The notes under the pieces: model-generated
What the model saw: the letters and a program-made list of their open reading frames with translations, nothing else
What the model was told of the DNA's origin: nothing
Databases searched by the model: none
Position numbers and translations under genes: made by a program
Part shown: one piece after another, positions 2,281-46,032 of the stretch
How the letters are laid out: the number at the start of each line of letters is the position of its first letter
How positions within the stretch are numbered: the first letter of the stretch is position 1
Virus record (IMG/VR): IMGVR_UViG_3300035327_000120
Length of the DNA stretch: 64,000 nucleotides
Source of the DNA: an uncultured virus (IMG/VR IMGVR_UViG_3300035327_000120)
Lineage: Duplodnaviria > Heunggongvirae > Uroviricota > Caudoviricetes
Strand: one strand, 5' to 3'

Positions 2281-4468
2281 TTAGATATTGATTTCTGAAC
2301 TCTGAAATATTATGTGGCAATGATTGATGCACTCACAACCGTCCTCGTATGCTGAAAAGCAATTTGGAGTATCTTCCTCGATTTTCCAACCCAAATTAGT
2401 TGCATCGACTCGCCGATTGTCAGTAAGAGTTTTGAACTCTGCTCTGGCCTCATCAAGCGAGCCGTAAGGTTTTACCTCCACACTGCGGTCATAATCATCG
2501 GAGCAGTCTTGGATTATGATATATATTGTCTTTTTCATTTGTCAGACACAGGTTTTTGAATTTCTACCAATTCTGCATTCTCGCCAATCCACAACATTGC
2601 ATCTTCACCCTTCCACTTGAAATCGAATGCTTTGTTAATTGGATTGAATATGCCGGAGAGAACCGTCCCCTCCTTGAGTCCTTTGATTTCAAACAGGCAC
2701 CACTTACCCATTTCGGTAAAGACTTTCACACGGGCTTTTGCTGGAACCGGTTTGTTTTTACTTGAACGTGCCATAATGATTAGATTTCGACAAGTACACC
2801 ACTCTGATATACGCACACCATATAGTTGTTGTTCTTGTTAGCCTTGCAGCATTGAGCAGCATAACTAATGGCCGAGGTTACCTCGCGGAATGATTTAACA
2901 GCATATCCGGCAGATTTTTTGATGACGTAAAACTTTTTCATGTCGTTTATTTGTTGATGTTATGTTTTATTTTGATAGTACAAAACTAACAAAAAATTAT
3001 CATATACACAAATATAACTACTTGAAAATCCGCAACTTAACTCAATTTTAACTTTTATTATCGTTATCGTATTTACAAGTTTTGGAGTGTGGAATTATCA
3101 TCTTCGGCTACATCACGATATAACTCTATCCCATTGACATTGTGGCTATGGGCTACCAGACCGGCAGACTCCAATTCTCCTATGGTTTCCATGATTTCAG
3201 AAATAATTTTACTGTGAACATCATTCCTGATCGCCACATACGGCGCCTTCTTATCTTTCTTTCGTTGTTCGATTACCTCTCTGATAACCTGATAAACGTA
3301 TGGCTGGAGATACTGCATGGCGGTCAGTTCAGGATTTTATATTCACGGATTAACTTGGCTGCTTTCAACAGGAGTGTTCCAAGTTGCTCCGCAGCGACAA
3401 ATTCTTCAGTATGCTTGCGTGTCAAAGGTTGACCGGAATAGCCGCAGGACTCTCTGCGCCGGTCAGCATACTCTTTCAGATAGTAGTTGCCTTCTCGTTC
3501 AAGGAACTTGGCAAAGTCATGCACGAGAGGGTCATTGCAAGCCTTATAGCCCTCTATGAAGCAGTCTACATTTCGATTGCTTAGATTGCGAGTACCGCGC
3601 AAGTGGTGGAAAGCCAGCACCGCCACGTCCTCGCTGTTCATGTGTTTGGGGGTATTCTTCATTACGTTATGATGAATTGAATGTTGAAATAAAACTCCCT
3701 GCTAAGTCGACCTACCTGCGGAAATTTCCACGGCGACTCTCCATAGGGAATAAAGATTACTCTCTGTTTAGTGTCGGCTGTGATGCCGTGTTTTCGTAGC
3801 CGGTAGAGCAGATTAGCCCTGCGTTTCAGGGTCTGCTGTTTCATCATCACAGGTGCATTGACCGAGCCGTACTCCCTCGTAAGAGATGAAAGGTTCATCA
3901 CCTTTCCGAACATACTCCGCTATCATTTCAGCTACGTCTGGAGATATGGGATATGCGAGCGCCTGCGCCATATAGACAGCACCGCATTTTGCGCACCTCA
4001 TTCCGAGGACTGGATTTTTTTGGGGTTCTTCCATAAGTTTTAATCTTTTCCTAATTCATAGTTTGTCAACATCAGCAGTCGAATGGCGAGCAATTCTTCA
4101 GGACTTGTAGCAAACTGTTCCTGTGTCAAGGTCTGAACGAGTTTTGCCGTTTTATTGGAGTATTGAGTTAGGCAATACTCCATCTTGAGGCAAGCGTGAG
4201 TGCCGTCCTGTCCATTGGAGTAATCGCCATACTTGCCAAACGACGGAGTTAGTAGAGAGTTGTCGATATCGAGTACCATGCAGATTTCAGGATATACTAT
4301 GCCCTTGAGGTATCTCCACGCTGTATGGGGTTCATCTTCAGTAAAACAGAAGCCAACAGAGATAGAACCTCCTTTGCCGCCGTTGTAATGGTCAGTAGTG
4401 TTAATCAGAGTTTCCCCTGATATGAACTTATGATACTCATTGAGCGAGCAAAACCTTGTAACTCTCAT
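2281..4468 (-). other. Array of short co-oriented phage hypothetical CDSs (2281-2538, 2535-2774, ~2780-2941, 3073-3318, 3324-3662, 3662-~3846, 3813-4034, 4040-4468)
   Basis: Tightly packed or overlapping minus-strand ORFs; no recognisable function (3813-4034 has a CxxC motif). Confidence 0.7.
2964..3056 (-). promoter_or_regulatory. Conserved phage promoter element, copy 1 of 7
   Basis: Minus strand TAGTTTTG (-7 TAnnTTTG) with TTTG upstream, GATAATTT spacer, upstream AAAAGTTAAAA box. Confidence 0.75.
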
Positions 4469-10304: not shown

Positions 10305-11880
10305 AGTCAGGAGTAATTTGATTGAGTATTTCTTTCAAAGCATCGCAGAGGGCCGACTCATAGGAACGATGTGTCTTTGGCTGAATGTTTACATCGGTAC
10401 GCTGGCTCCACCGCCAAAAGTAACCTATCCTATCTCCAGTCTTGCTATTGAATTTAGGACTGATAACTATGTCTATTCCCAGTTCCTCACGCAGATACTT
10501 GGCAGCTTCATCTATTCTCATTTTGGGGAGCATGATGTAATCGGTAACTTCTTTCATAATCAGTTCTTCCTCACACCATTCTTCATGCTTAGTTTCAGGA
10601 ATAGGCTTAAAATATTTTCTGCCAGTCCATTTATTGATGTTGAGTCCTAATACCGTCATCTGCATCGCCTGTTCTTCCGTAATATAAATGTCAATCATTT
10701 TTGCCCTCCTTTCTTGCACTCGCAATTCTCATCATGGCAGATGCCGATACCGTGGCCGTACTGATACAGGAGATATGAGTGGCCCTCATAGTTGAACTTC
10801 GTAATACAAGAGGCACAGCGTTTGTCCTGCTCTCTTTGCCAATCCTCATGCGTATATGGCTGCTCCTTGCAAGAGGTCAGAGCCAAGCTCACGGCTATTG
10901 CTACTAATATCTTTTTCATTGTTCCAGTTGTTTTTTGTCTTTGTCTTTATTCATCTGGAGCATAAATCGAAAAGGTCTTTGTTCTCTACGAGAAGCGACA
11001 TAATCAGTTCATAGACCGCATCGAGCGCATTGTCATGTTCTCCAGTTGTATGTAGTTGCATCGGTATCCCATCTTCGTAGGCTGATACGGTGTTAAGAAG
11101 ATAGCCAGCACGATACCGCCGACCATTCTTAGTCATGGCCTCTTGCAGAGTAAGCAGATACAGGAGATTGTTCCACGTCCTTATCCCTGCCGGCAGAACT
11201 GTTTCCATGATGTCAGAGAGTGAGAGGGCCGGAGCGAGGGTATAGTCCTCGATTGACTCTTTGAGAAAGAAGAAATCAGCAAACTCTTTGCTGACGGCCT
11301 GCGGCCTCTCTCCGTCGAGTTTCAGCCATAAGGCACTTGCCCCTGACAAATCTATCCTTTCGTTCTGCAAACGCTGGGCCTGCTTAATCGTTAAATATTG
11401 CCTGTTATTCATTGCCATTCAGTTTATCCGTTGAGGTTTCTTTGTCAGAATGCGATACCAGTTCCGGCCGTCAATTACTTTTGGCCGTTTAGAGATTACG
11501 AAAGTGGCAGCTCGTTGAGCTTTTATTTCATTCAGGATAGTATGCACTGCTTTTGCTCCGGCAAAGCACAACCTATCTTTATAGTCATGGTTGCTAAGTT
11601 TTCTCAAAGAGAAGCCGGGCAAATCGTCACCAAAAGCGACGAGCCATTCTTTTGTTTCATCATCATAAGCCAATAATCCTTTACCTCCCTTTTCTAATCC
11701 TAAGTCATCGGCTATCAGATTATTCAGATAAAACACTCCTGTTTTACGATTGACATTCACGAGCCACTGCGTAGGTGGGTGATTGTTGGTGCATTCTTTC
11801 GCAAAGATTTTGAGAGCCATAATCCAGTTATATTGCAAAAGCGAACTGCTTTTTGGTTTGACATGATACAACACTCTCAT
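10288..11880 (-). other. Hypothetical CDSs 10288-10725, 10695-10919 (lipoprotein signal LTSC), 10951-11418, 11419-11880
   Basis: Co-oriented abutting ORFs; 10695-10919 begins MKKILVAIAVSLALTSC. Confidence 0.65.
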
Positions 11881-12337
11881 ACTCCTTTACTTGACGCTCT
11901 TTCAGATTAAGGCAGTCGGCAGTATCTCTTATCGAGTAGCCTTGCATTCTCATTTCCCAAACAGAGAGTTGAGCAGTTGAGAACGTACTGCGAATGAAAG
12001 AGCAAATCGACCTCACAAGACCGGCGCGGTCTTTTTTAGGTTCTTCTTCCTCAACCGTATCAGGGAGTAAGGTAAAGAATAGGTCGTCCGGGTGGCTGAT
12101 CGTATAGGACTCGTTCAGATTATGCCGGGAGATTTGCCGATATGTTGTCAGGAATATTTTGCGATAGCCGGAGGCTGTGGCTGGCAAACTTTTACTCGTT
12201 ACGATTGTGAGATATGCTTCATGGAAAGCATCATCATCGAAAACACTCATCAAACCGATACTCTCTTTGAGCCTTGCGTAGTTCATTACAAACCAATCGT
12301 CAAAGGCCATTTTCTCCTTATTGTTTCGTTTAGGCAT
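11828..12337 (-). CDS. Sigma-70/ECF-like transcription factor
   Basis: DDDAFHEAYL (region 2-like) and C-terminal HTH WEMRMQGYSIRDTADCLNL. Confidence 0.55.
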   Translation of the reverse strand: MPKRNNKEKMAFDDWFVMNYARLKESIGLMSVFDDDAFHEAYLTIVTSKSLPATASGYRKIFLTTYRQISRHNLNESYTISHPDDLFFTLLPDTVEEEEPKKDRAGLVRSICSFIRSTFSTAQLSVWEMRMQGYSIRDTADCLNLKERQVKEYESVVSCQTKKQFAFAI

Positions 12338-12469
12338 GGCTGGCTCGGTTAGATGATGATTGACATTTTCGTTCTCACTGCGCCTGACAAGACGTTTAGA
12401 CCGTATCTCCCAGTCCGGTCAAGAGCCACAATTTGGCCCTTGACCTTTCCGAGGATTGCTTGCTTATTT

Positions 12470-13084
12470 TCAGGCTTCTTCATTCTTGCAGGCTGCTTTG
12501 GGAATGAAGCAGAAATCGGCGTAGATGTCGCCAAACTGCTTGGCGGCATATTCTGCCAATTCCTCATTCTTGAAGGCGAGCCGAGAGCCGAAGTGCGTGC
12601 TCGAGTACGTAGAAACGATGTACGCGTTCGAGTAAACGAGGCCGCCAATCGCACCCGCACTGTAGTGCGCACGGCCAACGACACGGCGTTCTTCCTTTTC
12701 TTCGTCGGACATTCCCTCGACCTCTTCTTTGGTGAGGAAATCGTACCAAGCGTACCAGCGACGCTCGCCTTCTGTGAACTGGGGCTTCCACCCCTCGTTG
12801 AGGGCTTCGGTGATTACGCGCAGAGTAACGTATGCCATGATGTCGGCAGTGTCCGGGTCTTTCTCGGATACGGAGTAACCGTACTTGATAGAGCGCCATG
12901 CCTTGACGGCAGGCTGGTCATCACCGAGTTCACGCACAGCGTCGTCTAACGTCTGCACTCGTTTGGTTACAGGGATTAACTCGGAGAACTCATCACCAAG
13001 AGCCTCCTTGATTGCTTTTCGGGCTTCATCACCACCAGTGCGGTATAGAGCCACAAGCTGTTCATCTGAAAATTCGATTTTCAT
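12470..13084 (-). CDS. DGR target 2: 204-aa protein carrying remote variable region
   Basis: Contains VR2 encoding RVVGRA...GSRLAF; no signal peptide or TM segment seen. Confidence 0.9.
   Translation of the reverse strand: MKIEFSDEQLVALYRTGGDEARKAIKEALGDEFSELIPVTKRVQTLDDAVRELGDDQPAVKAWRSIKYGYSVSEKDPDTADIMAYVTLRVITEALNEGWKPQFTEGERRWYAWYDFLTKEEVEGMSDEEKEERRVVGRAHYSAGAIGGLVYSNAYIVSTYSSTHFGSRLAFKNEELAEYAAKQFGDIYADFCFIPKAACKNEEA
12569..12687 (-). repeat. DGR variable region VR2
   Basis: Ungapped 119-bp match to TR 26313-26431; 15 mismatches, all at TR adenines (coding strand). Confidence 0.95.
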
Positions 13085-13140
13085 CTTGTTTCGGTTAATA
13101 TGTTGAACTTATTTGCTTATAGGTGTGGTTTGATTTCCAC

Positions 13141-13220
13141 AATGCAAAACTACACATAAATTATCTTTTATACAAGTTTTGCAGTGATTATTTTCGACCG
13201 AAATCGCATTTTTAACTTTT
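13141..13220 (-). promoter_or_regulatory. Conserved phage promoter element copy 2, directly upstream of DGR target 2
   Basis: Minus TAGTTTTG at 13145-13152, AGATAATTT spacer, AAAAGTTAAAAAT box. Confidence 0.75.
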
Positions 13221-16200
13221 GGGGAGTGGTGGAATAGGATTATCGTAGATACGGTTGATAACCTCTGGCATCAACACCTCGATACTGCCATTGCCGCCGT
13301 TTCTTATATATGCTTCGGAGTCTGTATCGCCTCTGTTGAGAGCAACCATTACTGCCCCCTCAATAGCCGCATGGGTATCAAGAGCCGACCACCCTCGCAG
13401 TTTACGAGCAACAGGATTAGCCCACTCCACGAAAAAACCGGTGCCTCCGTGGTTGTGGCCGAGGCCGAATGTAGTTACAGAGTAATACGGCTCACAGCAC
13501 CTTTCGTAAACGTATCTATCAATAATCAGCCATCGTTTGGCGAGTGTCCTAACATAATGAAGATAGTCCTCCTTTGAACCGTTGGAATGCGTGTAACTCT
13601 CAAACGGCCACTGCCAGTTCATTTGTTCTGCTCTTTGGTTGACAAAAAGAGGTCCGTCAACACTTTCATCTTTGCGCCGATCTTGATACTGTCGATAGAG
13701 TCGGCCACGGAAATATACCACTTTTCGCCTCTCTTCGCCATGTTCAGACACTATAAAGGCGACTGGAGCCTTATCCGAGGTGATTTCAGGAATGGAAAGT
13801 TTAACTATGCACTCCTTATCCTCATGTCTGGGTTTCCGACATCGAGGCGGAACTTTCCACTCTCGGTATTTCATGCGAAATTCAATCTTCATATTCTTGC
13901 CGTTTGAGAGTTGCCATGTATTCTGCAATCTCTTTCTCCAGTTGTTCCCTTGGGGTCTTGATGTTCTTACGGCACCTGAAATATCTCCCCTCGGCAGTAA
14001 AGCAGAATGGAAAGATATTGCCGTAATACGGCTCGCCGACGAAGAACATATTGTTCATGTTCCTCGCCGGCGGCAGGCAGTCGTAACTATCATAATAGGT
14101 GTCGCGGTCGATTTCTTCCACCGGGCCGTTGTGCAGACGCTCCTCGTATTGGAGATAGAGTTGGCGAATACTTTCCGCCCCCACTATCTAGAGGCAGGGA
14201 TTGTTATGCGTTTCTCGCAGTTGCTCGATCGTTTGGCCGGTATATGTGCAATGCACATCGTCGGCCATGCTCGTAACTACCGAGCCATCGAATAACTCTG
14301 TGGGGTCGATTACGTATTTCATGCCTTATCGTTCTTCGATTATGGTTAAGCAGAAGCCACTCTCACTTGCTATCTTCTTGATAGTGGGTATGTATTGATA
14401 GCCGGGGAGCATCAGGCGTACTTTGCGTCTATGGCCGGGATAATTCTTGTGTGTCAGGATTGCTATATACTCCTTGTCGGAAATATACATACCCTCGTAT
14501 TCTACTGTTATCATAGTGCTTGGTATAACTTGTTACTTAACTCCTTTTTGGCCTCCGAGTCATCATAGCCAAATAACACATGGACTGCTGCCGAGATTGC
14601 GGAGGTGGTCAGTTGACGCTGCCATGCACCCTCGGTGGGCGCCCAGTGGAAAGCACACTTTTTCAGACTATCTCTGACTGTGGCCGAGGGCTTCTCATCG
14701 TAGACAATCTGGAGTCGGTTTTCGGCATAGTTCACCACAATAGTACAGCCCTCGGCAGGAAATTCGGCACTCTCGCGTTCAGCGTTTTTCTTCATTACTG
14801 CCTCTCTCCATTTGCAGGTTTCAGCCAGTTTCCAGACTTTGTGCCGGGGAGTGAATATCGGTTTACGGAGTCTTGCGCTGTATTCTTTGATATAGTCAAG
14901 AGCAGCCACCACCAATGCCGACTGCCCGTTGTGGGCTTTTCGCTCTATCTTGCCGTATAGACTTGATACGAACAGGGCGCGGTTATAGCCACGGGCGCGG
15001 CCCTCGTCAATATCCACGATTGAGGACATGGTCGGTAGGAGTTCTTTTCTGAAATTCTCCCACTCTTCAGCGGCTCGTTGTTCAGGAGTTTTCGCAGCCT
15101 CGATACGACGGAGAACACCTTTGGCATAATTCTCTCGCCACTTGTTGAAATCCTCAACAGCCTTATCGTAGGCGTTGTTGGCAGATGTATTCCTGCGATT
15201 GTTGAAGCGAGCTGGGCCGGTTATCATCGGGCTAAGAATGCTTGATTGCTTGGAGAACAAGATGCCGACCCAGTTCTTGAACTTGTCGTAGTATGCCTCA
15301 CGTTCTGCCTCCGGGATTTTTTCAATGTCAGACAGGAGCAGCGTTTCGTACATACGAATATACTGCATGGAGCGCTGTTCGGGTACATGGCTGGTGCCGG
15401 AGAAAGCCCTGACACCTTGCTCGTATAGACTTTCAAGGTTCATGTCATACGCCCACTCCACGGCTTCCCATTCTTGGAGCGTGAGGTCGATGTCCTTGAC
15501 CTCTACACTTTCGCCGGTGGCGATGTTTGTTGCGATGTTATAGAATGTTTCAGAGAAGAAGCCGCTATGCTCGGACTTGCCGTGCCACGACCATTTCCAT
15601 TCTCCTTTTTCAGGTGCCGATTTCAGGCGTACCTTGATTGCCCGGTGGCAGTTCCGTAAGGATAAAGTTGTTGCTTCCATATTCGTTTCAGGTTATACTT
15701 ATTTGCTTAATCAAGCAGAGAGTCGATCTGCTTCTTGACCTCTGCGGCCAGTTCCAATCCGGCAGGGCCGAATGCCTGTGCCTCGCTTAACGCGCTGGCC
15801 TCGTATGTCAGACAGGCAAAGGTCTTATCCGGGAGGCTGATATTGAGGCGAGGTTTGCCCCAAAACATATCTATGTGTATTCGAGGATTGCCGTTGCAGC
15901 CGCCTATCTTTTCTTCCTCAAAGGTGGGGATTATGTATCGACAGGTCTTTATGTCGACCACTTGACCGCTTTTTCTTGCGGCTATGCCTATGGCCACGTT
16001 TCCCCAAAACTGATCGTTTAGGGCATTATGAGTGGCCGGGGCCTCAACCTCAATGTATCCGTATTTTTGGGCGAGGTTCTGTGCTACTGCGAGCATTGCG
16101 TCATTTACTGTCATATTTCAGGAGTTTACTTATTTGCTTATTTGTTGTGGAGAGGACCGACATTTCTGCCCTCTCCGTGAATATCTTACTTATAACTGAT

Positions 16201-16629
16201 TTCCAAGTAATTCAGGCCAAAGGTGTCCGATATGGAAACGAAACTATTGAAGCGAGGCTCAAAGTGCATGGAGAAGAACCATTGGCGAACTTGATAACTA
16301 CCTACTTTGAGCAGTTTCTCCATTTCCCAAGTAATCTGGTCGAGCTTCCAACCTATCTTCTGCTGTATCTTTTCGGCAAAATAGATGAGCATTGAGCTCA
16401 TTGCATCATTGCGAGCCTTGATGCGTGTGCCATACAGGAGTGTAGCTTGAACATCACGAGCAATCTCTCCCTTTTCGGAGTTAATGTCGTTTGCCATATC
16501 TTCCAACTCCCACTTTTCATCGTCCGAGAGGTTGAAGATTTTGACCATGTTACGAATGTCCTGTTTTTTAATTACTTTTCTCATCTTTGAGGTGTTATTG
16601 TTTGTTTTTGATAGTACAAAACTAATCAA
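13212..16629 (-). other. Hypothetical CDS array (13212-13928, 13882-~14320, 14326-14514, 14511-15680, 15707-16114, 16186-~16584)
   Basis: Co-oriented ORFs; 14511-15680 (389 aa) ends in ENRLQIVYDEKP...FHWAPTEGAWQRQLT, a motif common in mobile-element proteins. Confidence 0.7.
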
Positions 16630-16703
16630 AAATTATCTTTTGTGCAAGTTTTTCAATGCGAATTTTCGTGCTTAACACCTTGATTTCGTGATTTTTAACT
16701 TTT
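16606..16703 (-). promoter_or_regulatory. Conserved phage promoter element copy 3
   Basis: tttgatagtacaaaactaatcaaaaattatcttttgtgcaag, identical core to copy near 45930. Confidence 0.75.
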
Positions 16704-17148: not shown

Positions 17149-17958
17149 ACCATTACTGGGATAGGTCGGTTAGCGTATTCAGGGGACTCGATGAAGAACC
17201 AGTTATAGTCTTTCAGCTTATAACCTATCCAGTCAAAGAGGGGCGCCCATATAGCGTATAACGCCGACGTGTCTGTGAGTTGGAATGTCCGGCCAACGCC
17301 GGAGCCGTCCTCGGCCATTAGAGTGGCGCACACTCGACCGGGTATTTTAGTGAGCATTAAAGTCGCGCCTATTTTCTCATCTTCTTCAGTCCAAAGTTCA
17401 AGAGAGAACTTTGCTTCTGAAATCTTGCCTCCGAGCATTCTTTTTATTTCGGAAGCTATTACCATTTCATGTAAGTGCTTACTCATCTTCGTATTTCTTA
17501 AAAACTTATTTGCTTATCTGTTTAGTTGAGAGGGAGAGCCTTGAGTGTCTTGAGGTGATGGCCGTCTTTATACCACCTTACCTCGACAATCCTGACTGAC
17601 GGTGAGAGGAAACGTCCAATGTCCTGCTGGGTCTTAATCTGGAGTGCGAGCCATTTGGCCGTATTCTTGGTGCGTTTGATAAGGGTTTTCTTAAACTTTA
17701 ACACCATATCCTCCGTATCTATCTCCACTCTGTAATTCTCGGAGTTTAATATCCGGTTGAGGTCAGAGGTCAATTTTTCTATTCGGCTACTCATGTCAGA
17801 GAGGATTATTTGCGTTTGGCAATCTCCGCAACCACGAGCGAGAGGAATGTATTTGTATATTCGCAGGGGTTAGAGGCGAACATCATTTTAGCCATTTCCA
17901 ACTGGGCGTTCAGGTTTTCAGTTGAAAGAGTTGAGAGGGTATTTTTAATTGCGTCCAT
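17145..17958 (-). other. Hypothetical CDSs 17145-17486, 17522-17794, 17806-17958
   Basis: Co-oriented ORFs downstream of promoter copy 4. Confidence 0.65.
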
Positions 17959-17969
17959 ATTATTGTTTA

Positions 17970-18082
17970 TGTTTTATTTTGATAATGCAAATCTAATCAA
18001 AAATTATCTTTTACACAAGTTTTTTGAGTAATTATTTTAGTCTTAAATACTTGTAAATCTGATTTTTAACTTTTGCTCACAT
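17970..18082 (-). promoter_or_regulatory. Conserved phage promoter element copy 4
   Basis: Minus TAGATTTG -7 box; about 110 bp highly similar to 45921-46032. Confidence 0.75.
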
Positions 18083-21604: not shown

Positions 21605-21654
21605 CTTGTTTCGTTTTAGAACTTATTTGCTTAGAGGTGTGAGTTTGATTTCAC

Positions 21655-21700
21655 AGTGCAAATCTAATCATAAATTATCTTTTATGCAAATTTTAACGGC
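21655..21700 (-). promoter_or_regulatory. Conserved phage promoter element copy 5
   Basis: gcaaatctaatcataaattatcttttatgcaaa; its 5' leader also resembles 13081-13140. Confidence 0.7.
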
Positions 21701-21846: not shown

Positions 21847-22153
21847 TTTGCATATCAGTTTGCGTATCAATTTGCATATCAACATAGACGTTATTCTGCA
21901 TATCATTGATACGCAAATTGATATGCAGTTATTCTTATATGATAATGAGTTACGCGAAAAATCTGCGTGTCAACATACGAGAGATTTTGCATATCAAAGA
22001 ACCCCGATTTTTGCGTATCAATAAAATCTGCATATCAACATAGCACTAATTCTGCGTATCAATAACACGCAAATTGATATGCAGAACTAATTGACAATAA
22101 ACTTATTACAGCGATATTTTGCGTGTCAATATTAGTCTAAATCTGCATATCAA
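21847..22153. repeat. Iteron-like array of TGCRTRTCA repeats (candidate origin or partition site)
   Basis: 11 forward copies (21849, 21861, 21873, 21897, 21964, 21988, 22012, 22029, 22053, 22120, 22144) and 3 inverted (21906, 21918, 22074). Confidence 0.85.
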
Positions 22154-22678: not shown

Positions 22679-23029
22679 TTACCCGATTACCGCGTTGTGC
22701 TCCATTTCGTTGGAGAGTGCCATATTGATGAAATCGTTTATCGTAGTGCCTGCGGCCATTGCAGCAGCCGCTACTCGTCCATGCAGTTCAGAGGGCATAC
22801 GGAGTACGAGTTTGCCGCTATAAGGCTTTGCAGGAGCAATACCTCTGCTTTCGCAACTTGCGAGGTATTCATCAATAGCAGACTCAAAATCAGAACGGAT
22901 TTCATTTATCGTAGTACCCTCATAGGAGATTAGAGTACCGTGGAGGCCCTGTACCTTACCGAAAAGGCAATTATCCTCATCGCTAAATTCTACCGAGCCG
23001 GTGTAACCTTTGTATTTGAGCTGTCCCAT
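22679..23029 (-). CDS. hicB: HicB antitoxin
   Basis: LKYKGYTGSVEFS...FESAIDEYL...KPYSGKLVLRMPSELH. Confidence 0.9.
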   Translation of the reverse strand: MGQLKYKGYTGSVEFSDEDNCLFGKVQGLHGTLISYEGTTINEIRSDFESAIDEYLASCESRGIAPAKPYSGKLVLRMPSELHGRVAAAAMAAGTTINDFINMALSNEMEHNAVIG

Positions 23030-23030
23030 A

Positions 23031-23282
23031 TCAGAGTAATTTTAATTCTTTGAGAGTGTCAATTAACTGTTTAACTTGATAACCCTTTAACTCACCCGTT
23101 GGGTGGGGTTTATGGAGCAACAGAGTGTCGTTGCCTCTGATAAACTCCACTCTTGACCCGGAAGTCTTTCCCTTATGACTTTCCTCAAATCCAAAATACT
23201 GCAAGAGCGTTTTGGCTTCATCATAATGAAAATCCTTTGGCCTACTAAGAAGCCGTGCAATTAGTTTCTCCTTTTTACTCAT
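23031..23282 (-). CDS. hicA: HicA toxin
   Basis: KTSGSRVEF...LHKPHP...YQVKQ; immediately upstream of hicB. Confidence 0.9.
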   Translation of the reverse strand: MSKKEKLIARLLSRPKDFHYDEAKTLLQYFGFEESHKGKTSGSRVEFIRGNDTLLLHKPHPTGELKGYQVKQLIDTLKELKLL

Positions 23283-23555: not shown

Positions 23556-24065
23556 TCAAGCAGGGAGCAAGTAGAACAGGCATCGGTAAACATCTATGAG
23601 TATGCCAACCTCAACCCAAAACACTATATTCCTAAGATTGAATAGCCCGATTGTCAGTCCAAGCAAGGAGAGCCACGGCACACCGATTGTCAAGGCTATC
23701 CATACGACAGCGGCCACTCCGAGAACAATAGCAGCCCCACAATGCACCTTACCGACAAACTCATCTTTGAACGCCGGACTCGCCGCGACAAAGAATATCC
23801 CGGCCACTATGAAGAAGCCGAGAAACTTGTAACTTTCAGGCGTGTGGTTCAGGATTGGAGCAAGAGCGAGAGAAGCAGCCACTATCAGGACAGCAGAGAA
23901 CAGCCACCGCTTGTTATTGCGGTAGTAGGTATCGCTTATCGAGGTAGGAATACCGTTATTCCCGATAAATGAGAACAGGTACACTACCATTATGAAGCCG
24001 GAGATTACTGTTGCGCACCATTCCATATCTCTGACTCCCAGTTGATAGATGTTTTTTCTTGCCAC
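23556..24065 (-). CDS. Multi-TM membrane protein
   Basis: Several hydrophobic segments, [10 protein letters not shown] motif. Confidence 0.65.
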
Positions 24066-24499
24066 TTGGCATTGGTAACAGCGGTTTTGTGGGCGCAGAT
24101 GCCGGCAGCCACCTCCCCAACTTCCTCGATAGATGTAAACTCATGCAACACGAGAGCCGTGTCGCTAAGGTTCATTGTCAGGGGTAGTTGGAACAGGCCG
24201 CCCTGTAAGCCGGTGATAAGACCCGTGAAATCGCTCTTGCGTTCCTCTGAATACTCGACACGCTTGCCGTTCCATTCAAACCCAGCCATGAGTTTTTCTG
24301 CATAGTCGGCCTCGATCTGTGCCGTGATTATCGCCTTTATCTCATCGAGAGATGGCTTCGATGAAAAGCGTTGGCGGTAATTCCAACCAGTCTGTTCCTG
24401 TTCGCTGTCTTTGCCGAAGCCAAAGATAAGTTCCCACTTGTTGCGGCCTATCTTATAGAGGCCGTCCTGTCGGCCCGTGGCGCCATATACTTTTTCCAT
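24005..24499 (-). CDS. Hypothetical protein (DUF4376-like, tail-associated)
   Basis: [11 protein letters not shown]...GFEWNG...WQEKTSINW; directly downstream of RT. Confidence 0.5.
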
Positions 24500-24506
24500 G
24501 ATGTTG

Positions 24507-26120
24507 TTATTTGAGGTTGAAACGATTTAGTATGCTTTCCAACTCTTTATCCGAGGGAGCCGTGATGTTGAACTTGGAAGCTGACACGAAATTGGCTTTT
24601 GGGTACTGGCCCGAATAGTCCATTTCAATAGCAGCAAAGAACGGAAATCCGTCCTCATCGGCTATCTGGTCGAGTATATTCCATAGGTCGCGGTCGCCAG
24701 TCCACATTTTGCGTAAGGCTCCCTGATAGATTATCTGAATGATATACTTTGTCTTGGGCTTCTCCACGAGGTCAGGATTAACACCCCTAACACTTGCGTC
24801 CTGAAGCCTGCGCTGATATTCTTCCCTATCTCGTCGGGCTACTACGTCGCTCTCGAAATCTACCACGATGAAGCCTTTGCCGTCTAACTCACGAGGGCTG
24901 ATCTTATTCCCCCGAAAGTTCTTTTTGCCGTCAAGAGTGGTAGGATTGAGTTTGAAATCACCGAAATCTTTCATTTTGTCTTTGAACTTTAATCGTTTAT
25001 ACTCACTTGGAGCGAGAAGCGTTTTGAGCAGATGCCGACAGTCTGCATGACTCGCCATTCCAAAGAATGAGCCAATCAATTTCTGCCGGCGCTTACGAGA
25101 TTTTACCCTCGCTAACGCCCTCGCAAATTTTTGCTTTGTCCTTTTCCTAATCAGGGCATGAGTGCCATAATTCTTGAAACCGAGATAGTCATTGCCCTCA
25201 CTCAAAGGGCGTACTGCTTCACTCGGCTTTACTTGCAATCCTTTCTCGGCCAGCAACGACACGAGATAGTCCCGAAGCAGCCATAGTTCTTTTTTCGTGG
25301 GAGCGAATATTACTATGTCATCGCAGTATCGGTAATACAGAAAGCGTACCTTTTGCCCCTTGAGTGTTATTTCACCCTGACCGACAGCCACCGGCACGCA
25401 CTCTTCAATGCCATTCTCCGTAAAGACATAATTCCTTACCCTCGCGCTCATTTTGTGGTCTATGTCCGAAAGGTGGAGATTGGCAAAGCATTGCGAAGAA
25501 CGGAGGCCCTTTGATAAGCCCTCCGGCAGCAGCTCCACGAAATTATCAAGTTGAGGCAGCAATATCGGGTCAGAGGTATACTGCCGGATCTGCCACTTCA
25601 TAATTCTTTGGTTGATGTTGTCGTAGTAGTGGCAGACATCACACTGATAGAAATACTTCATGAACTCCGGCACTCGGCTCATATCTTCTTTGATGACATG
25701 AAAGAGCCAGTGCATACCTCGGCCTTTAATCGAGGCTCCTGTGTTCGTTATCAGGGTCGGATATGTGTATTTCTCAAATACCGTCATTATCGCATGACAG
25801 CCTACGCGATGATAAACTGTCGGGCATTGGACTATGCGCTCCTTTGGCCCGTCAGTTACTCGCAGGGTTCTGAAATCTTTCTCGGTTATCCTAAATGTTC
25901 CAGTTGAGATTTCAGTAATGAGCCGGTCAACATACTGCGTCCTCTTAGGGCGTATATGGTCGCGTTGGCCGGAGTTTTCCAAATGACTTACAACATAATC
26001 GAAAGCACTCTCCATATTGGCCCTATCCACAATCTCGGTCGTGAGGTCGGGGATTGGGAATTGCCATGTGATAGCCTCACTTGGCGGTTCCGGGGTCATG
26101 TATGGAATATCTTCGTTCAT
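24507..26120 (-). CDS. DGR reverse transcriptase with C-terminal extension
   Basis: GPKERIV, IKGRGMH, GLRSSQCFANL, YRYCDD; adjacent TR. Confidence 0.95.
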   Translation of the reverse strand: MNEDIPYMTPEPPSEAITWQFPIPDLTTEIVDRANMESAFDYVVSHLENSGQRDHIRPKRTQYVDRLITEISTGTFRITEKDFRTLRVTDGPKERIVQCPTVYHRVGCHAIMTVFEKYTYPTLITNTGASIKGRGMHWLFHVIKEDMSRVPEFMKYFYQCDVCHYYDNINQRIMKWQIRQYTSDPILLPQLDNFVELLPEGLSKGLRSSQCFANLHLSDIDHKMSARVRNYVFTENGIEECVPVAVGQGEITLKGQKVRFLYYRYCDDIVIFAPTKKELWLLRDYLVSLLAEKGLQVKPSEAVRPLSEGNDYLGFKNYGTHALIRKRTKQKFARALARVKSRKRRQKLIGSFFGMASHADCRHLLKTLLAPSEYKRLKFKDKMKDFGDFKLNPTTLDGKKNFRGNKISPRELDGKGFIVVDFESDVVARRDREEYQRRLQDASVRGVNPDLVEKPKTKYIIQIIYQGALRKMWTGDRDLWNILDQIADEDGFPFFAAIEMDYSGQYPKANFVSASKFNITAPSDKELESILNRFNLK

Positions 26121-26312
26121 TCTAAAAAGCCTTCAGGCGCTACTGTTATTTTCCGGCTTTCTTCCAATCTATTCCACTTTGTTCAGGATTGGAATAAATC
26201 AGAGAGGGTTGCCGAGGCTTGCGTCCCTCGCAGAATGCTTTGCCTATCCCGTAGGCGTTGCAGGGTCATACGATTGTTAGAGCATGAGGGGAGCCTCACG
26301 TTTTTGTATTCG

Positions 26313-26431
26313 CTTGAATGTGAGCCGAGAGCCGTTGTTCGTGTTCGAGTTCGTAGAAACGTTGTTCGCGTTCGAGTAAACGAGGCCGCCATTCGCATTC
26401 GCATTGTTGTTCGCACGGCCAACGACACGGC
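26313..26431 (-). ncRNA. DGR template repeat (TR)
   Basis: AAC-rich (12 AAY codons in target frame), lies between target gene and RT, matches VR1 and VR2 except at adenines. Confidence 0.95.
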
Positions 26432-26494
26432 ACCGGGGACGCGCTACCTTTTTGAGTTCATTCCTTTTTGTTGTTTGTTGTCATTATGTTTGCC

Positions 26495-26525
26495 AGAGAT
26501 AGACCACTTGAAGCGGTCTATCTCT
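26495..26525. other. Hairpin downstream of VR1 (candidate DGR homing cruciform or terminator)
   Basis: Perfect 11-bp inverted repeat agagatagacc...ggtctatctct. Confidence 0.6.
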
Positions 26526-26541
26526 TTGTGGGTATTTCCAT

Positions 26542-29500
26542 TCAGTCGGTTTCGATTGTTTCAGATGTATCCTCAACAATCTCAATATCCCCACTGAAGG
26601 CGAGCCGAGAGCCGCAGCTCGTGTACGAGTTCGAAGAAACGTAGTACGCGACCGAGAAAACGAGGCCGCCATACGCATGCGCATTGCCGTACGCACGGCC
26701 AACGACACGGCCTCTATCATGGGTGTAATAGTAGCCATCGCCGTAGTGTAAATTCCATTGAGAACTATCCGAAGTTACGCGAGAAGCAAGGGTATCACAG
26801 AACCTGCCAAACTTTACACGGCCTATGCAGTAGCCACTTGAGGTATTGTTGAGGCCCTGCACGGCACGTTCTGTCTTGCTTACGGGGTCGTAGATGTGAT
26901 ACACAGCATCTATCGGGTCAGAGGATTGACCTATGCACTTATTCTTTTTGAATGAGGCATAACTTGTTACGTTGGCCGCAATGTTCGACATCCATTCATA
27001 GTTGCAGGCTACGAAATTCTGAATACCGAATATGATATTGCCGATGTTGCTTCCACTATACTTTCGGGTTACATTGCCAAAGGTGTTGAAATTGTTGGCA
27101 CCGGTCGTATATTGAGAGCCACAGCCATATCCGGCATAAGCCTGAATGTCGCGCTCTCCAGTCAGAGCCATTACAAGGTTGGCGATATCCTTTGATATTT
27201 CGTAGTCGATAGCATGGTAGCCCTCACCTCGCATTTCGCACAGGTTCATAAAGTCCTGACAGGTGTAGTGCATGGTCGAGGTCGGCACCGAGGTATTCTT
27301 TACCCGTCCCTCGGAGTCATACTGCCAGTCGGGATTGGTAGTAGATGTTCCGTCGCCGCACTTGGTTCTGCTACCGCTGATAGACCGAGGGCGCATGAGA
27401 TTATCCATGTGTATGCCGTACACGCCGACCAGACGTTGGCGAGTATGCACCCAATCAGGTTCTATTGCCTCGATTGCGGCCGAGTCAACTGCAATAGCCT
27501 CCAGTTCATCGAAGCCGATAGGAGCAGTGAACAGCAGTTTGACAGAGCCGGAGGGAACATCGCAGAAAACGTACTCTCCATTCACGAAGTCAAAGAGTGC
27601 ATGAGTAACCATCATATTGAACTTGGCTACAATCTTACCGTCTGCGTCGACAAAGACAGCGCCGATAGTGGCATTGTTGAGGCCCGGCCAGCGGACTTGC
27701 TTCATGCCCTCGACATTTATCTCATACACGCTGTAATTCGGGTTCTCCAGTATTGTAACATCGTCCCCTTTCTTTACAGCGGTGTCATCGACAATCGTAT
27801 AGACGCTGGCCATAGAGGTATGCAGACAATCAGCGAGTTTAACTCGGTTACGACGATAGGAGCCGTCGGCATTGGTGGCGACTGTCGAGATAGGCTCTTC
27901 TGCCATACTGCTGACAAAGAAATACTTTCTCTGGTTCTTGTAGTCGTTCACACCCTTATACCAGTATGCAGGGAGTAGCTTCATAATGTCGAAGCCTTCT
28001 CCTGCCTGATCGGTGGGGTCATACTCCGTGCCGTCGGCCATGAGATTGTAGTTTGCATCAGAAATCTGTATGCAACGCATCTTCTGTGAGGTACGGTTGT
28101 AGGTACACTTATAGGCGTGGCTCATATCCCTCACGCGGACAAAATGCCCGGAGGGTTCAAACTCTTCGCCGACGGTGCCGTTTTCAAGGTTGGTGATGTT
28201 TTGGCTATCACTCTCCGTATCATCGAACACAACGCCGGTGTACTGCGAGTTGTGGATTTCCAGTTGAGGGAAATATCTCTTCAACTTTTCTATCGTAACT
28301 GCGTCAGCACCGTTTTCAGGGATAAGGTTCTCCATTATCCACCGGCCCGTGATGCCTGAACACTGGCCGCTTTCTTCGTATGCTTGGCCGGAGGGGTCAA
28401 GACCCACGGCGCCGCTTGAGCGCAGGGCCGCAAGGATTGATGAGGGTGCGGTAATGTTGACATCCGGCAGTCGTATGTATCGGATAGCCGATGACGTTAC
28501 TATGCCGTTGATAAGTGCCATAGGGTCGATATGCGGACAGCCGGAGAGCATAAGGCGTATCACGTTGCTCATGCCTGCGATTGTCAGACCGCCGGGATAT
28601 GACAGCTTGGGGAGGTTGACAAAGTTTAACTCCGACATTGAGGCCGGGAGTTCCAGCGTTTCAAGCGGTGAGGTTTCGGCCGTGGTGATCGAGGTGAGGT
28701 CAGAGCCGGAAGCAAGCACCGTTTCAAGTCGAGGGCACTTGGAGGCGTTGATAGAGCGTATCTCCGTGGTTCTCACGTCAAGGTGGCGCAAGAACGGCAG
28801 GTCGCCGAGGTTCATTGTTTCAAGGAAGCCGGTATTGCCGGGCGACAATCTCCACGTTGTCCTGTGATTGACCGAGCCAATCACAATCTTCTCCGCAAGT
28901 GTCATTACAGAGAATTGGAAATTGGGGTCGAGCGACAACTGCGAGAGGTCTATCTCGCTCATGCGGTCAGCCTGATAGATGTAGAGCAGAATGTTATCGC
29001 CATGCTGGAAATCGGTAAATACACCTTCTTCACCGGCTTGCAGATACATTCCTTGAGTGATGTTGCCACCGTCATTGCCGATGCCGAAATAGCCCGATTT
29101 GGCTGCCTTGAAACGAATGACAGCACCAGTCTTAGCACCGACACGACCACCGAGGACGTGGCTTGCGTCCTTGAAATCGCCAGTCTGGTAATAACCGTCG
29201 CGTATGCGCCACCTCTGCTCGATGAACGCAGGGAGTGAGGTCAGACCGAGGCCCTGAAGGGCGTAGTAGTATATGTCATTGTAGCCGGTATAGTGTATAT
29301 ACTTGCGCTCGCCGTCATACGAGGACACTACTTTCGGCCACAGCTTCATACGTTTGTTGACAAAGTAGTGGAGCGCACCTTTGGGCGAGAACGGGCCGGC
29401 ACCGATACCGTCAATCTCAGGGAGATTGCGCATCGTGGCCACTACGCCGGGGAGGGTCAGAGTATTGCCGGAAGCATCGCAGACCATTTCCTGATTTTCG

Positions 29501-32500
29501 CAACGGCGCAAGTCATTCCAGAGGATAGAGCCACGGCCGGCGTAGCACTTATCATCTGTTGCAGGGTCAAGTTCAGAGGGTATCGTATTGCCGCCGTCAT
29601 TGTCCTTACCGTTGCAGGTGTCGCAGTCATAGACCTTATTAAAGTACATTCTGACTGGTTCCATTGCAGAGGGAGTATGATATTCGCCATTCTCAACCCA
29701 GCAGCCGTCCTCTAAGAAGAACATCGGTTGCATATTCTTTGCCTGCTGATCGACAGCGGCAAGGTAATCCGTGAATGTGTAGTAACTGATAAGCGACTGA
29801 ACGCTCATATATTTCCACGCATTCGATTTCCATATTCCCTGCCATGTTGATGCGAGAGCAGCCTTAGAGTAGTCGCAAGTATCGCAGAATTTGAGAACAT
29901 TGAACAGGTCATACGGCACCTTACGACCCATTGCGAGGTCTATCTGCAACTGGTCGTCATCTATCATGCACTCGAAGAACTGCGTCCATGCCGGATAGGT
30001 TTCCTGTCCGAGATTGAGTTTCGCAACCCACGAGGACATTGTGGCTGTGGGAGCCATCATGTCTGCCACAGAGCCGACACCCATAAACCAGTCCATGCCG
30101 TCGTAGGTGATAAGCTCGTAGCCGGATACAGGGTTCAGGACATCGCCGGTGATTACCCACTTGCCGTTAATCTGCTTCATTGAGCCGGTAGAACGCGCCC
30201 ACTCGCCGCCGCTGTAACGCATTATGCGGTAGTCGCGGCCGCAGTATTGCGAGAGCAGATACGGCATAGTGGTATCAAGACCCTCGGACTGTTTGAAGCG
30301 AGCCATTGTCTGGTCGAGAGTTTCATCGGGCAGACCGAAAAACTCTATAAAGTCGCCGTAGTTCAGGCAACCCTTATTGTATCCGGGAGTGTCCATGAAG
30401 CCGAGCGCAACCTGTTCGCCCTTATCCTCTTTCCAGTTACCTTTGGCATGAAACCACGCATCGGTCAGCGACTCATTGGTGGCACGGAAAGCGGCGATTG
30501 GGTGATTGGCTGTGGAGTGGTTCATTTCAAGGCCACTCACAACAACCTCGCCTTTCTTCCATGTGCCGTCGAAAGCACGTTGGGCCGGTGTCATGTAGGA
30601 AGCACCGAGAGTGCGATATGTGGCGTTCATAAGGTCGCACACGCCGCAGTCATTGGAGTTTGAGCTGTCGGAATAGTCGACCTTAACCGTGATGATTTTG
30701 ACAGGGATTGTATTCTCTTCTACGCGGACATAGCCGAGTTCAAAGAGTTTGTATGCCATGAGAGCATCGGCATTTTCGTAATCAGGATAGATAGGCGTAA
30801 TCTTCCAACCTTTCTCTTTGGCGAGATAAAACCTGTCATTTTTGATAGGACGCTTGGCCGAGGTCGTACCCTGACGGCGCCAGCGGACATTCTCTGCTTT
30901 GAAAGAACGCCACGGCATTGTCGGGTGAAAATAGAACAGGGTACACTTGAAATTCGTAGACGTATTGATGTCGGAGTCGAAACTGTCAAACGTAGCCTGC
31001 GGAGCGACTACAACATAGTACGGAATACCCTTTGCTTTGAGTAGGTCAAGAGTGGGCCGGTTCTGATTGTCAAGCACATTTTCTGCCTCATACTCCGCTG
31101 TCATAGCGTTGGTGTCAGTCAGTTTGCACAGGTAGTTCTGGAAAGCCTGCGCCCACTCGTAGTAGCTGTCATAAGCGAGAACATAGTACAGATACAAATC
31201 ACCGTCCGTACCGTTGAAGCTGATATGACGTGTGTTGAGGATAGCGCCGGAGTTGGCTACATAACCGATTGCGCCTACCTCTTCACCGTTCAGATAAAGT
31301 TTTAAGGTGGAGTAGTCAGTCGAGCCACGATGCACGGTGATTGTTGAGGGTTCAACAACAACAGCCAGCGTTATCTTCTCACCACACTTGAAGCCACGGG
31401 TAACGGTCGAGGGGGTGCCGTTCTTGCAGTACATTACAACCTTGTTGCCGCAGATGTAGAAGCCTGCGCCGCTATCTGGGTCGTAGCACTCTACCAGTTT
31501 GGCCTCGCTGTCCTTGATATTGTTTGTGGCAAAGGCCATCTGCCACGCCATACCGTTAGTCCTCTCCGTGGCGGCAGAGCCAAAGGGTGCATAAGGAATA
31601 CGGGCGGTTACGTTCTCTGCAATGCGGAGGCAGTTATCGCCGAGATAGTTCCCGAAGCCGTTTGATGACCAGTTGGAGCCTTCAACTATCATCGTAGCCC
31701 CTTTATCGGTAATGGTATGGTCAGGTTCAGAGTTGGAGCGTGTAGCAAAGTCATAGCCGAACAGCGCCCCCTCTTTCAGAACAGCAGCAATCGCAGAGCC
31801 GTAAACACGAATCTGAATGGGCGTAGTTTGAGAAGCACCACTCTGCACAAAGAACTCTATTGTAGCCGAGCCGTCGGTATCGTAACCTTGTATCTGCTTC
31901 GATACCTGATAAGTCTGGGAAATTTGACATTCCACGGTGGTAACAACGTGGCCGTCGATAGACACGTCAGCCTTAGTGGAGTTTTTGTTTGGAGTGTATG
32001 CGGCCACCTCTACAACGAGCGAGTCATACAGACGTATGGAGCCGTTGTTGGTGTCATTGTATCGGAGTGCAACGATTGGAGTTGTGGAAGCAGGGTCAAC
32101 GCACATTACCGAGGAATAGATTGTGTTGCCTTTCACTCCTGAAGCCACGTCCTCTCCCGATATGCGGATTGGATATGAGCCATGCTGCATTACCTCGTTG
32201 CCACCGAGAACATTCTTCGGATTGATTGATATAGTATGAGAATAGCTATCGGTTATCGTAGCGACTCCGAGGGTATGCCATGCTCCGTTGAGGTAAATTT
32301 CAGTCGTAACTTTCACGCCCTGCTTCGATACGTTGTTGGCGAACTTATACATCAGAATGTTTTTGGTATCGCCACCAACCTCTAAGGCAGAACTGGAGGT
32401 GTAGTTGAGGGTCTGCACCGAGGTACAGGTAACGTCGACAGCCGTAACGGTAATGGTACGACGCTTGACATTGTTATCTGCATCATAGGCCACTATCGTA

Positions 32501-34739: not shown

Positions 34740-35252
34740 TTATCCGATTTTGCGTATTTTGATGCCTCCTGACGCTCTTTGTGCGCCGAGGTTGCCCGTA
34801 GGTATCCCGACATGGCTACAATAGCGCAGACAGTCCCGGAGGTAGCTGTTTGCGGCTTCCAGTGTGTCATTGTAGCAGTCGGAGCGCTCTTTGGTGGAGA
34901 TATGGGAGGCGTAGTCGGACTCCTTCATCACCACTCCGAAGCGAGTAGTCTGAAAGTCGCCGACCATGACATTTTTGGCGAATACGAAATATGCAACACA
35001 GCATTTCAGCCCGACAAACGAATAGATGCCGCCGTCCTTTGCCGTGTATGTGCCTCCATTCAGAAGCACTTTGTATTGCTCATTTACCTCGCCGTTTTGG
35101 AGTATATCAAGGAACAGCCTATCACCGAGAACAGGCTTAATATTCATCTGCTCTGCTTCGGTGATATAGGCCAATATTCTTTCATGGTCTATTTTGCCGT
35201 TTATGGGTCGGCCAATCTTGGCTGCCTCGTCAGTGGTTAAGAGATGTTCCAT
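34740..35252 (-). CDS. Head-tail connector/adaptor-like protein
   Basis: Follows portal; YITEAEQMNIKPVLGDRLF pattern. Confidence 0.5.
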   Translation of the reverse strand: MEHLLTTDEAAKIGRPINGKIDHERILAYITEAEQMNIKPVLGDRLFLDILQNGEVNEQYKVLLNGGTYTAKDGGIYSFVGLKCCVAYFVFAKNVMVGDFQTTRFGVVMKESDYASHISTKERSDCYNDTLEAANSYLRDCLRYCSHVGIPTGNLGAQRASGGIKIRKIG

Positions 35253-45620: not shown

Positions 45621-45902
45621 TTACTTTCCAGAGGTTATAATCATCTTGCCCTCAAAGAGCTGGTGGTAAGAGAGTATCGTTTCTCCCTTAATCAATTTGG
45701 TATTATCATCGTCAAGGTCGCCGTCAAAGGCCACAAAGCAGATTTCAAACGATTTGCCGGGAGTACGCATGGCATACTGCATTGCCTTTTCCATTAAGGT
45801 AGCCATATCGCCATAGTCTAAGTTTTGCTCTCCACGAAAGAGTGCAAAGTTGGCAAAGTTTTTCACCTCCATTTGGGGACTATTGACATTCTTGTTACTC
45901 AT
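45621..45902 (-). CDS. Hypothetical protein
   Basis: First ORF after promoter copy 7. Confidence 0.6.
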   Translation of the reverse strand: MSNKNVNSPQMEVKNFANFALFRGEQNLDYGDMATLMEKAMQYAMRTPGKSFEICFVAFDGDLDDDNTKLIKGETILSYHQLFEGKMIITSGK

Positions 45903-45920
45903 TGTCTTTCAGTGATTTAT

Positions 45921-46032
45921 TGTTTTATTTTGATAGTACAAAACTAATCAAAAATTATCTTTTGTGCAAGTTTTTAAGTAAATATTTTGGGCTTAAATGC
46001 TTGCAAATCTGATTTTTAACTTTTGCTCACAT
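45921..46032 (-). promoter_or_regulatory. Conserved phage promoter element copy 7
   Basis: Minus TAGTTTTG -7 box, AGATAATTT spacer, AAAAGTTAAAAAT box. Confidence 0.75.

Follow-up and report, generated by a model that had tools for sequence, protein, structure and literature searches.

In phages, the targets of diversity-generating retroelements (DGRs) are mostly tail or receptor-binding proteins, according to the survey of Roux et al. 2021, which by its own statement is blind to remote targets (PMC8144416). Some systems with two targets have been described. The DGR of Quimbyvirus targets two proteins, one of them in the structural module, and a role in phage-host conflict has been proposed (Benler et al. 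2021, PMC8008677); in four induced gut prophage species, a second variable repeat (VR) is reported distal from the reverse transcriptase (RT), near counter-defence genes (PMC12629997, which cites Benler for LoVEphage). Bacuni phages have a two-target DGR whose distant second target resembles a fimbrial tip adhesin (PMC8143477), and the 'tentaclin' phages nd4 and nd12 have a two-target DGR with adhesin-like targets (PMC10743442). A distal non-structural second DGR target, located next to counter-defence genes in gut Bacteroidota phages, is already published in PMC8008677 and PMC12629997, and the idea is not new. Here we analyse a 64,000-nucleotide stretch of an uncultured virus (IMG/VR IMGVR_UViG_3300035327_000120), the whole of which we call the window. 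It is a Bacteroidota prophage with one template repeat (TR) and two VRs: VR1, in a very large protein encoded near the RT (target 1), and VR2, in a small protein encoded far away (target 2), which is almost certainly an active, remote second DGR target. Among the studies listed in literature searches on Quimbyvirus/Quimbyviridae and on second or non-structural DGR targets, we found no functional study of the target 2 protein.

Target 2 gene: 12470-13084, minus strand, open reading frame (ORF) of 204 amino acids (aa), phrog_11581 family, predicted mostly helical
VR2: 12569-12687, minus strand, remote variable repeat, ungapped alignment to TR 26313-26431
TR: 26313-26431, minus strand, 119 nt, 31 adenines, 12 AAY codons in the VR reading frame
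DGR reverse transcriptase: 24507-26120, minus strand, 537 aa, phrog_1423 'Reverse transcriptase' at E 8e-64
VR1: 26593-26711, minus strand, C-terminus of target 1, third copy of the repeat family
Target 1: 26542-34722, minus strand, 2726-aa virion-type protein adjoining the portal gene, with VR1 at its C-terminus

As reported for Quimbyvirus and LoVEphage, the single DGR of the window serves a structural target next to the RT and also a small, distant protein in a non-structural region, which bears the second VR. Target 2 is probably in the same protein family as the published second target of these phages. LoVEphage and PV4-TP1 encode a protein homologous to target 2 (tblastn 33-35% identity, E 2e-8 to 8e-12), both being phrog_11581; the link to Quimbyvirus goes through PMC12629997, which cites Benler for LoVEphage, and through a matching neighbourhood, the neighbours in PV4-TP1 (methyltransferases, tRNA ligase) fitting Benler's description. 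The window differs from them in being a different phage lineage from mouse-gut samples, in the size of target 1 (2726 aa vs roughly 480 aa for the large frame of the LoVEphage-like records), in having the RT in one ORF rather than in the three overlapping frames that Benler describes, and in the neighbours of target 2, which are not methyltransferases.

With Mtd of phage BPP-1, TaqVP and TvpA the window has in common that TR-to-VR substitutions are adenine-specific, that the VR is located close to the C-terminus and that its 3' element resembles the one for initiation of mutagenic homing (IMH), and their folds are matched by target 1; target 2, unlike them, is remote from TR and RT, mostly helical, without a lectin-fold match and located among early genes. 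Bacuni and tentaclin phages likewise have one TR and two VRs in different genes, one of them distant in Bacuni, but the targets of these phages are all described as adhesins or receptor-binding proteins with a lectin fold, whereas target 2 has neither such a match nor structural neighbours.

VR2 is diversified at the adenines of the template repeat

VR2, in the C-terminal third of target 2, aligns to the TR, 13.7 kb away, over 119 nt without a gap, and the three-copy family of VR2, TR and VR1 was recovered independently by a repeat finder. We recounted the 15 mismatches reported in the original prediction, and 15/15 fall on a TR thymine of the plus strand, that is, on an adenine of the coding minus strand; given that 31 of the 119 nt are adenines, random placement would put all 15 mismatches on A with a probability of ~7e-11. 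The 204-aa ORF and the peptides quoted in that prediction (VR2 HYSAGAIGGLVYSNAYIVSTYSSTHF, VR1 YGNAHAYGGLVFSVAYYVSSNSYTSC) were also as described. VR1 differs from the TR at 19 of the 119 aligned positions, with 17 mismatches at adenines within the repeat and the remaining two at the edge of the homology. Both VRs match the same single TR, in agreement with the claim of one DGR with two targets.

Within VR2, a mutable core (12591-12667, codons 140-165) is followed by an invariant, IMH-like 3' part (12569-12590). Two of the mismatches, at 12575 and 12577, are located in this 3' part and are the same in VR1: at codon 170 both VRs have GCC where the TR has ACA. These sites are invariant across 117 natural protein variants and four sequencing runs. 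A GC-rich 3' element, GGCTCTCGGCTCGCC, is common to both VRs, and the TR copy differs from it at two positions (...ACA...), the compared sequences being GGCTCTCGGCTCGCCTTC in both VRs and GGCTCTCGGCTCACATTC in the TR. Judged from these sequences, 12575 and 12577 look like a fixed difference between the IMH of the VRs and the IMH* of the TR and not like mutagenesis; when they are set aside, 13 mutagenic VR2 differences remain.

The variation of VR2 in nature was read from protein homologues and, between samples, from assembled contigs. A word-indexed search returned 1982 homologues of target 2, of which the best 120 are 88-100% identical and 117 of those 120 are 204 aa long. Aligning the 117 variants, we found 15 columns with an entropy of 1.1-3.0 bits, all other columns being at or below 0.33 bits, and these 15 are exactly the codons of residues 140-165 in which the TR has an adenine. 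Read in the VR frame, this part of the TR contains 12 AAY codons, one TAC and two ACG. The residues found at the TAC-derived codon (Y/F/C/S) and at the ACG-derived codons (T/A/S/P) are those that single adenine changes permit. From the adenine-bearing codons of the TR we computed an upper bound of ~8e15 target 2 protein variants.

The stretch was found in 20 sequencing runs from ten studies, most of them with 0.88 of the sampled words, and we compared the contigs of four runs, from four studies, over 11400-13400. The contigs that bridge the gene have 16-19 differences each, all inside 12591-12667, between flanks of ~1.9 kb that are identical. In total 26 positions vary, all of them TR-adenine sites, out of the 27 such sites in the core. 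The few remaining differences, at 12782 and 13120-13149, belong to short contigs derived from different loci. Diversification of VR2 takes place in nature.

By analogy with Bordetella phage BPP-1, the RT would copy the TR RNA into adenine-mutagenised cDNA, which would then replace VR1 or VR2 in trans, with the 3' IMH that both share and the 5' homology as guides. The RT is encoded directly downstream of the TR, with 193 nt between its ORF and the TR, and an RT homologue was present in 5/5 related records with a TR and in 0/5 without. The RT is long, and no Avd-like ORF was noticed among VR1, TR and RT (24005-26541), where no dedicated search for an accessory factor was made. The ORF that follows the RT (24005-24499) is phrog_19239, a family label without function.

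One variable module in two otherwise unrelated proteins

Comparing VR1, VR2 and TR three ways in 15 of 17 related viral records and in the window (G007 and G017, with four copies each, were left out), we found TR adenines at 188/196 mismatches of VR2 and at 200/201 of VR1. The two VRs resemble each other in residue usage (Tyr > Asn > Ser > Gly), and the share of AAY codons with unmutated Asn is 24% in VR2 and 21% in VR1. At 161 AAY-derived codons of the 16 genomes, VR1 and VR2 have the same residue 30 times, no more than expected by chance (permutation mean 29.4 +/- 4.4, P 0.48). The independent mutagenesis that had been proposed from the window is thus borne out, and chance-level agreement together with similar mutation shares points to two targets that are equally mutagenised and independently selected. 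By the same figures, VR1 and VR2 do not track each other as they would if sharing one ligand, with the reservation that different scaffolds could still need different residues for it.

Outside the VR the two proteins show no resemblance, as had been stated: hhalign of the two families aligned 42 columns only, the VR itself (target 2 residues 133-174 vs 344-385), suggesting one variable module in two otherwise unrelated proteins. We then compared predicted structures. An AlphaFold2 (AF2) model of the last 399 aa of target 1, built with 50 homologues, reached a predicted local distance difference test (pLDDT) score of 80. With VIA-align it matched TaqVP (5vf4) at Z 16.5 (root-mean-square deviation (rmsd) 3.4, 217 aligned), Mtd (1yu0) at Z 11.4 and TvpA (2y3c) at Z 9.7, and with Foldseek it matched TaqVP at E 1.3e-4. 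The last ~300 residues of target 1 are clearly predicted to form the DGR-type C-type-lectin fold that bears VR1.

The AF2 model of target 2 (59 homologues; pLDDT 82, predicted template modelling (pTM) score 0.77) has 11 helices and is almost all helix, and VR2 residues 135-164 are below pLDDT 50. Searches with this model, its VR at that low confidence, gave no significant fold match, the best hits being E 2.5 with Foldseek and Z 4.7 with VIA-align (rmsd 6.8, 76 aligned), in the same pipeline that found the lectin fold of target 1. The C-type-lectin-like fold for which structure prediction had been suggested is therefore found in the model of target 1, and the model of target 2 is helical without a lectin match. 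The models set a lectin fold in one target against a helical scaffold in the other, in which a reduced lectin core may still be hidden.

Target 2 belongs to a large family of Bacteroidota-phage proteins

Target 2 is in the large Bacteroidota-phage family phrog_11581, whose profile it matches over its full length (E 2.1e-44; residues 2-197 vs profile positions 3-196 of 200). We searched 1.84 billion cluster representatives (50% identity) exhaustively with HMMER and obtained 1221 clusters at E<=1e-3, 462 of them at E<=1e-10, and most of the family clusters are 190-200 aa long; in IMG/VR there are at least 550 relatives. Searches for a named function gave nothing: Pfam, NCBIfam and PADLOC have no match for target 2, a profile search of PDB sequences gave chance-level hits only (best E 0.025, TIM44), the ESM Atlas has only unnamed viral and Bacteroidota clusters, with no structure there, and no record of the phage collection was matched by 11000-15000 in megablast.

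The family also includes longer homologues with N-terminal extensions, and in the 17 that were scanned the extensions match no Pfam or PHROG family. One of these proteins, P0223, has a sub-threshold Tad2-like hit (19.9 bits vs a cut-off of 25), a lead only, in a segment which we take to resemble the DLLAEDW motif of DUF2829. In PV4-TP1 a DUF2829 (Tad2-like) gene is found ~1.9 kb downstream of the small target (L002:8320-8772). These two observations may be a coincidence.

Most near-complete relatives carry both targets and a template repeat

By tblastn against an annotated phage collection, we found homologues of target 2 in eight records, BT-TP2, PV4-TP1, BI-TP1, four LoVEphage records and Versailles. 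PV4-TP1 and the LoVEphage records are 97-98% identical over 4 kb. In PV4-TP1 the VR of the small protein has 17/17 mismatches at TR adenines, and in Versailles the C-terminal segment of the homologue has two more copies 43 kb away, with 15/16 mismatches to the adenine-rich copy at adenines. Among 79 related loci, a TR or VR1 copy is located within 10 kb in only nine.

We therefore built a VR-region peptide profile from 73 related loci and the window, and ran it against 24 whole viral records, reading through stop codons (L040 was left out). In 17/24 records there are at least three matches, corresponding to a ~200-aa frame, a large frame and a short frame, the TR; the large frame is 2181-2850 aa in twelve of them and 441-563 aa in four. 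One record (G010, from L057) has the small target and a target in a 2739-aa frame with no detectable TR or RT, and six of the 24 have the small protein alone, three of these being rated 100% complete. Of the 18 records with a completeness rating of 90% or more, 14 have both targets and a TR, one has both targets without a TR and three have the small protein alone. Homologues in DGR-less phages, for which a check had been suggested, are thus present in 3/18 near-complete records. Across lineages only 27-35% identical, the VR of the small protein is in frame, with its AAY codons in register and no stops, and the family conserves the scaffold residues that surround the variable codons.

Several members deserve mention. 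In the RT-less G021 lineage, two loci (L075 and L093) have the same peptide equivalent to the VR, from which that of a third (L087) departs at a single residue, as if the VR were frozen, to judge by these three sequences. The nearest available host genome, G001, has three family members (C1:744317-744880, 1942667-1943260 and 2025081-2025662). The member at 2025081, with a TR-like hit 13.8 kb away, seems to be that of the window itself. The member at 744317 (62% identity) is almost unchanged in its VR scaffold and is accompanied, 15 kb away, by a separate VR in a 2749-aa frame, and cross-talk between the co-resident DGRs is conceivable. Two further records (G007, from L048, and G017, from L069) contain two or three small family members with VR-like segments, the second member in L069 being ~700 nt downstream of the first.

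Target 2 is encoded among replication and recombination genes

The prophage gene set of the window includes an integrase (115-1389), a portal protein (35230-36444), a large terminase (57308-58768), a tape-measure-like protein and an endolysin. A primase-like protein is among the neighbours of target 2, and none of them is structural. We scanned three ORFs on each side in 23 viral loci (136 ORFs; L054 and L068 were left out as duplicates of L042 and L061). No flanking ORF (0/136) belongs to the head, tail, connector or lysis categories of PHROG, so the non-structural setting claimed for the window holds across the family. DNA/RNA metabolism accounts for 23 of the 136 (RecT/RecE/Erf, SbcC, DnaB/C/D-like proteins, replisome organisers, helicases), and there are also four DNA methyltransferases, one integrase and one second family member. 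In Versailles and PV4-TP1, the neighbouring genes are annotated with functions in recombination and replication and as methyltransferases. The setting of target 2 is better described as a replication/recombination block than as a defence island. The downstream 169-aa gene had been called sigma-like, which could not be established: Pfam gave no match, NCBIfam gave SigX region 4 at 12.7 bits (E 0.079), and the gene has no similarity to the sigma factor annotated in Versailles. It is found near target 2 in 2/79 related loci.

The gene is framed by two candidate expression signals.

Promoter-type element: 13098-13179, minus strand, 82 nt, one of seven copies, with a -7-like box TAGTTTTG at 13145-13152, just upstream of target 2
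Seven promoter-type copies: 2934-3015, 13098-13179, 16570-16651, 17941-18022, 21612-21693, 42779-42860 and 45892-45973, minus strand, from the repeat finder
Hairpin: 12417-12445, minus strand, 12-bp stem, no U tract, 25 nt past the target 2 stop

The copies have the Bacteroidetes-type TTG ... TAnnTTTG layout and read CTTG ... TAG(T/A)TTTG when aligned, and the conserved promoter that had been attributed to target 2 is real, as one of these seven. The copies at 13098 and 21612 also share a leader downstream of the -7 box. Folding of 12338-12480 gave a minimum free energy of -42.8 kcal/mol (z -2.35), and the hairpin past the stop may be a terminator or an RNA-stabilising structure, as far as its sequence indicates. 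A comparable hairpin (26495-26525, 13-bp stem) is located 17 nt past the target 1 stop, between VR1 and TR.

Two other features were observed in the prophage. At 22679-23282, ~1.2 kb from the RT, a HicB-like antitoxin gene (phrog_9151, E 8e-37) is paired with a toxin gene (phrog_8887, E 5e-18). A 60-nt direct repeat (21869-21928 and 22025-22084; 85% identical, 156 nt apart) lies in the intergenic region between divergent genes and could be an operator or an origin-like region.

Possible functions of target 2

From the gene context and the absence of structural features, we favour an intracellular role. Target 2 would be soluble and mainly helical, and a host-type promoter of its own would drive its expression within the replication/recombination (early) block. 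With a Tyr/Asn/Ser/Gly-rich variable patch on display, it would adapt to and bind, inside the cell, a variable factor of the host or of a competitor, and serve counter-defence or host takeover. That target 2 works inside the cell, in this way or in defence of a lysogen, we consider somewhat probable, and our best guess is that it is not part of the virion. The narrower proposal of an intracellular counter-defence binder is tentative, and the complete statement, that a single DGR diversifies target 1 and target 2 and that target 2 is such an intracellular binder, falls a little short of being probable.

Several observations weigh against the intracellular counter-defence reading. No homology or experiment links target 2 to defence or counter-defence, the PADLOC, Pfam, NCBIfam and PDB sequence searches being empty; PADLOC defence models gave 0 hits for target 2 and 10 neighbours, Pfam and NCBIfam pointed to no such role for target 2 or its neighbours either, and the anti-defence or host-takeover role put forward in the original prediction is still an inference. 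The variable patch is modelled below pLDDT 50, and the notion of a surface binding patch is taken from the analogy with target 1. The small protein is kept without RT or TR in three of the 18 near-complete genomes, which suggests a role that does not need continuing diversification, and among the 79 related loci target 2 has no conserved partner gene. The promoter copy at 42779-42860 stands ahead of a block that continues into the genes for capsid, portal and target 1, and the promoter type therefore gives no early or lysogenic timing. Finally, the RNA-library contigs of run X17 cover 12446-13132, the gene and its leader, and not the flanking genes; this run was chosen because it contains the target 2 gene and offers contigs only, and it was not counted as lysogenic expression.

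Alternatively, target 2 may be an accessory adhesin or receptor-binding protein of the virion, encoded remotely, perhaps mounted on target 1, and providing a second, independent specificity. Precedent speaks for it, phage DGR targets being mostly tail or receptor-binding proteins and the distant second target of Bacuni resembling a fimbrial tip adhesin (PMC8144416, PMC8143477, as described there). The scaffold residues and the Tyr/Asn/Ser/Gly usage of VR2 are also those of the lectin-fold VR1, and the structural block is preceded by the same promoter type. The lack of a signal peptide, noted in the original prediction, was confirmed in that the N-terminus, MKIEFSDEQLVALYRTGGDEARK, has no hydrophobic or lipobox segment, but it does not argue against a virion role and is compatible with one, because virion proteins are also made in the cytoplasm. 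However, none of the 136 flanking ORFs in 23 loci is structural, target 2 is predicted to be helical without a lectin, Ig or fibre-like match, and outside the VR no domain is common to the two targets. The 'tail protein' label on the Versailles homologue probably arises because PHROG 'tail protein' families match target 2 homologues only over the ~40-residue VR. We consider a virion adhesin unlikely.

A quite unlikely explanation is that target 2 is a 'moron' expressed in the lysogen, a diversified sensor that blocks competing phages or mobile elements (superinfection exclusion) and does not aid the phage's own infection. The gene forms a cassette by itself, having a consensus Bacteroidetes promoter, a strong hairpin past the stop and no conserved neighbours, and the X17 contigs cover only it and its leader; three family members at three loci of the nearest host genome and two or three paralogues in some phages are what is expected of arms-race genes. 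However, the X17 coverage is biased, the run having been found via the gene, and contigs cannot show transcript ends, while the coverage in run X15 is even over the entire region, the pattern expected of carried-over DNA. In addition, no PADLOC defence model was matched, and a location between recombination and replication genes is typical of early genes of the lytic cycle. Finally, that VR2 is a by-product, a VR module copied into an unrelated early gene and mutagenised off target without a selected function, would fit the 42-column VR as the only common part of the two targets and the DGR-less family members in 3/18 near-complete records, but is very improbable given that the VR is in frame, in register and stop-free across 27-35% identical lineages and 17/24 records, that VR2 is mutated as heavily as VR1, and that the scaffold residues flanking the variable codons are conserved family-wide.

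In a bolder form of the intracellular counter-defence reading, target 2 would represent a new class of DGR variable protein, in which the ~40-residue variable module of a lectin-fold tail protein was moved onto an unrelated all-helical scaffold to give an early, intracellular, programmable, antibody-like inhibitor of variable host defence factors or of rival phages; we regard this as rather doubtful.

Significance for Bacteroidota phages

DGR biology is known almost wholly through receptor-binding proteins, and the benefit of hypermutating a small non-virion protein has been a question since 2021. The window adds that the second target belongs to a distinct, very large family, whose members are accompanied by a TR in most near-complete relatives and lack one in a few. 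It also adds the replication/recombination setting, a variation independent of that of the tail target and a predicted scaffold unlike the lectin fold. Cultured relatives, namely Versailles (Bacteroides caecimuris) and the LoVEphage-type PV4-TP1, BI-TP1 and BT-TP2, make the question testable at the bench. If the bolder reading is true, the family would be a widespread, diversified counter-defence system of Bacteroidota phages, and its RT-less members with a frozen VR would be natural controls.

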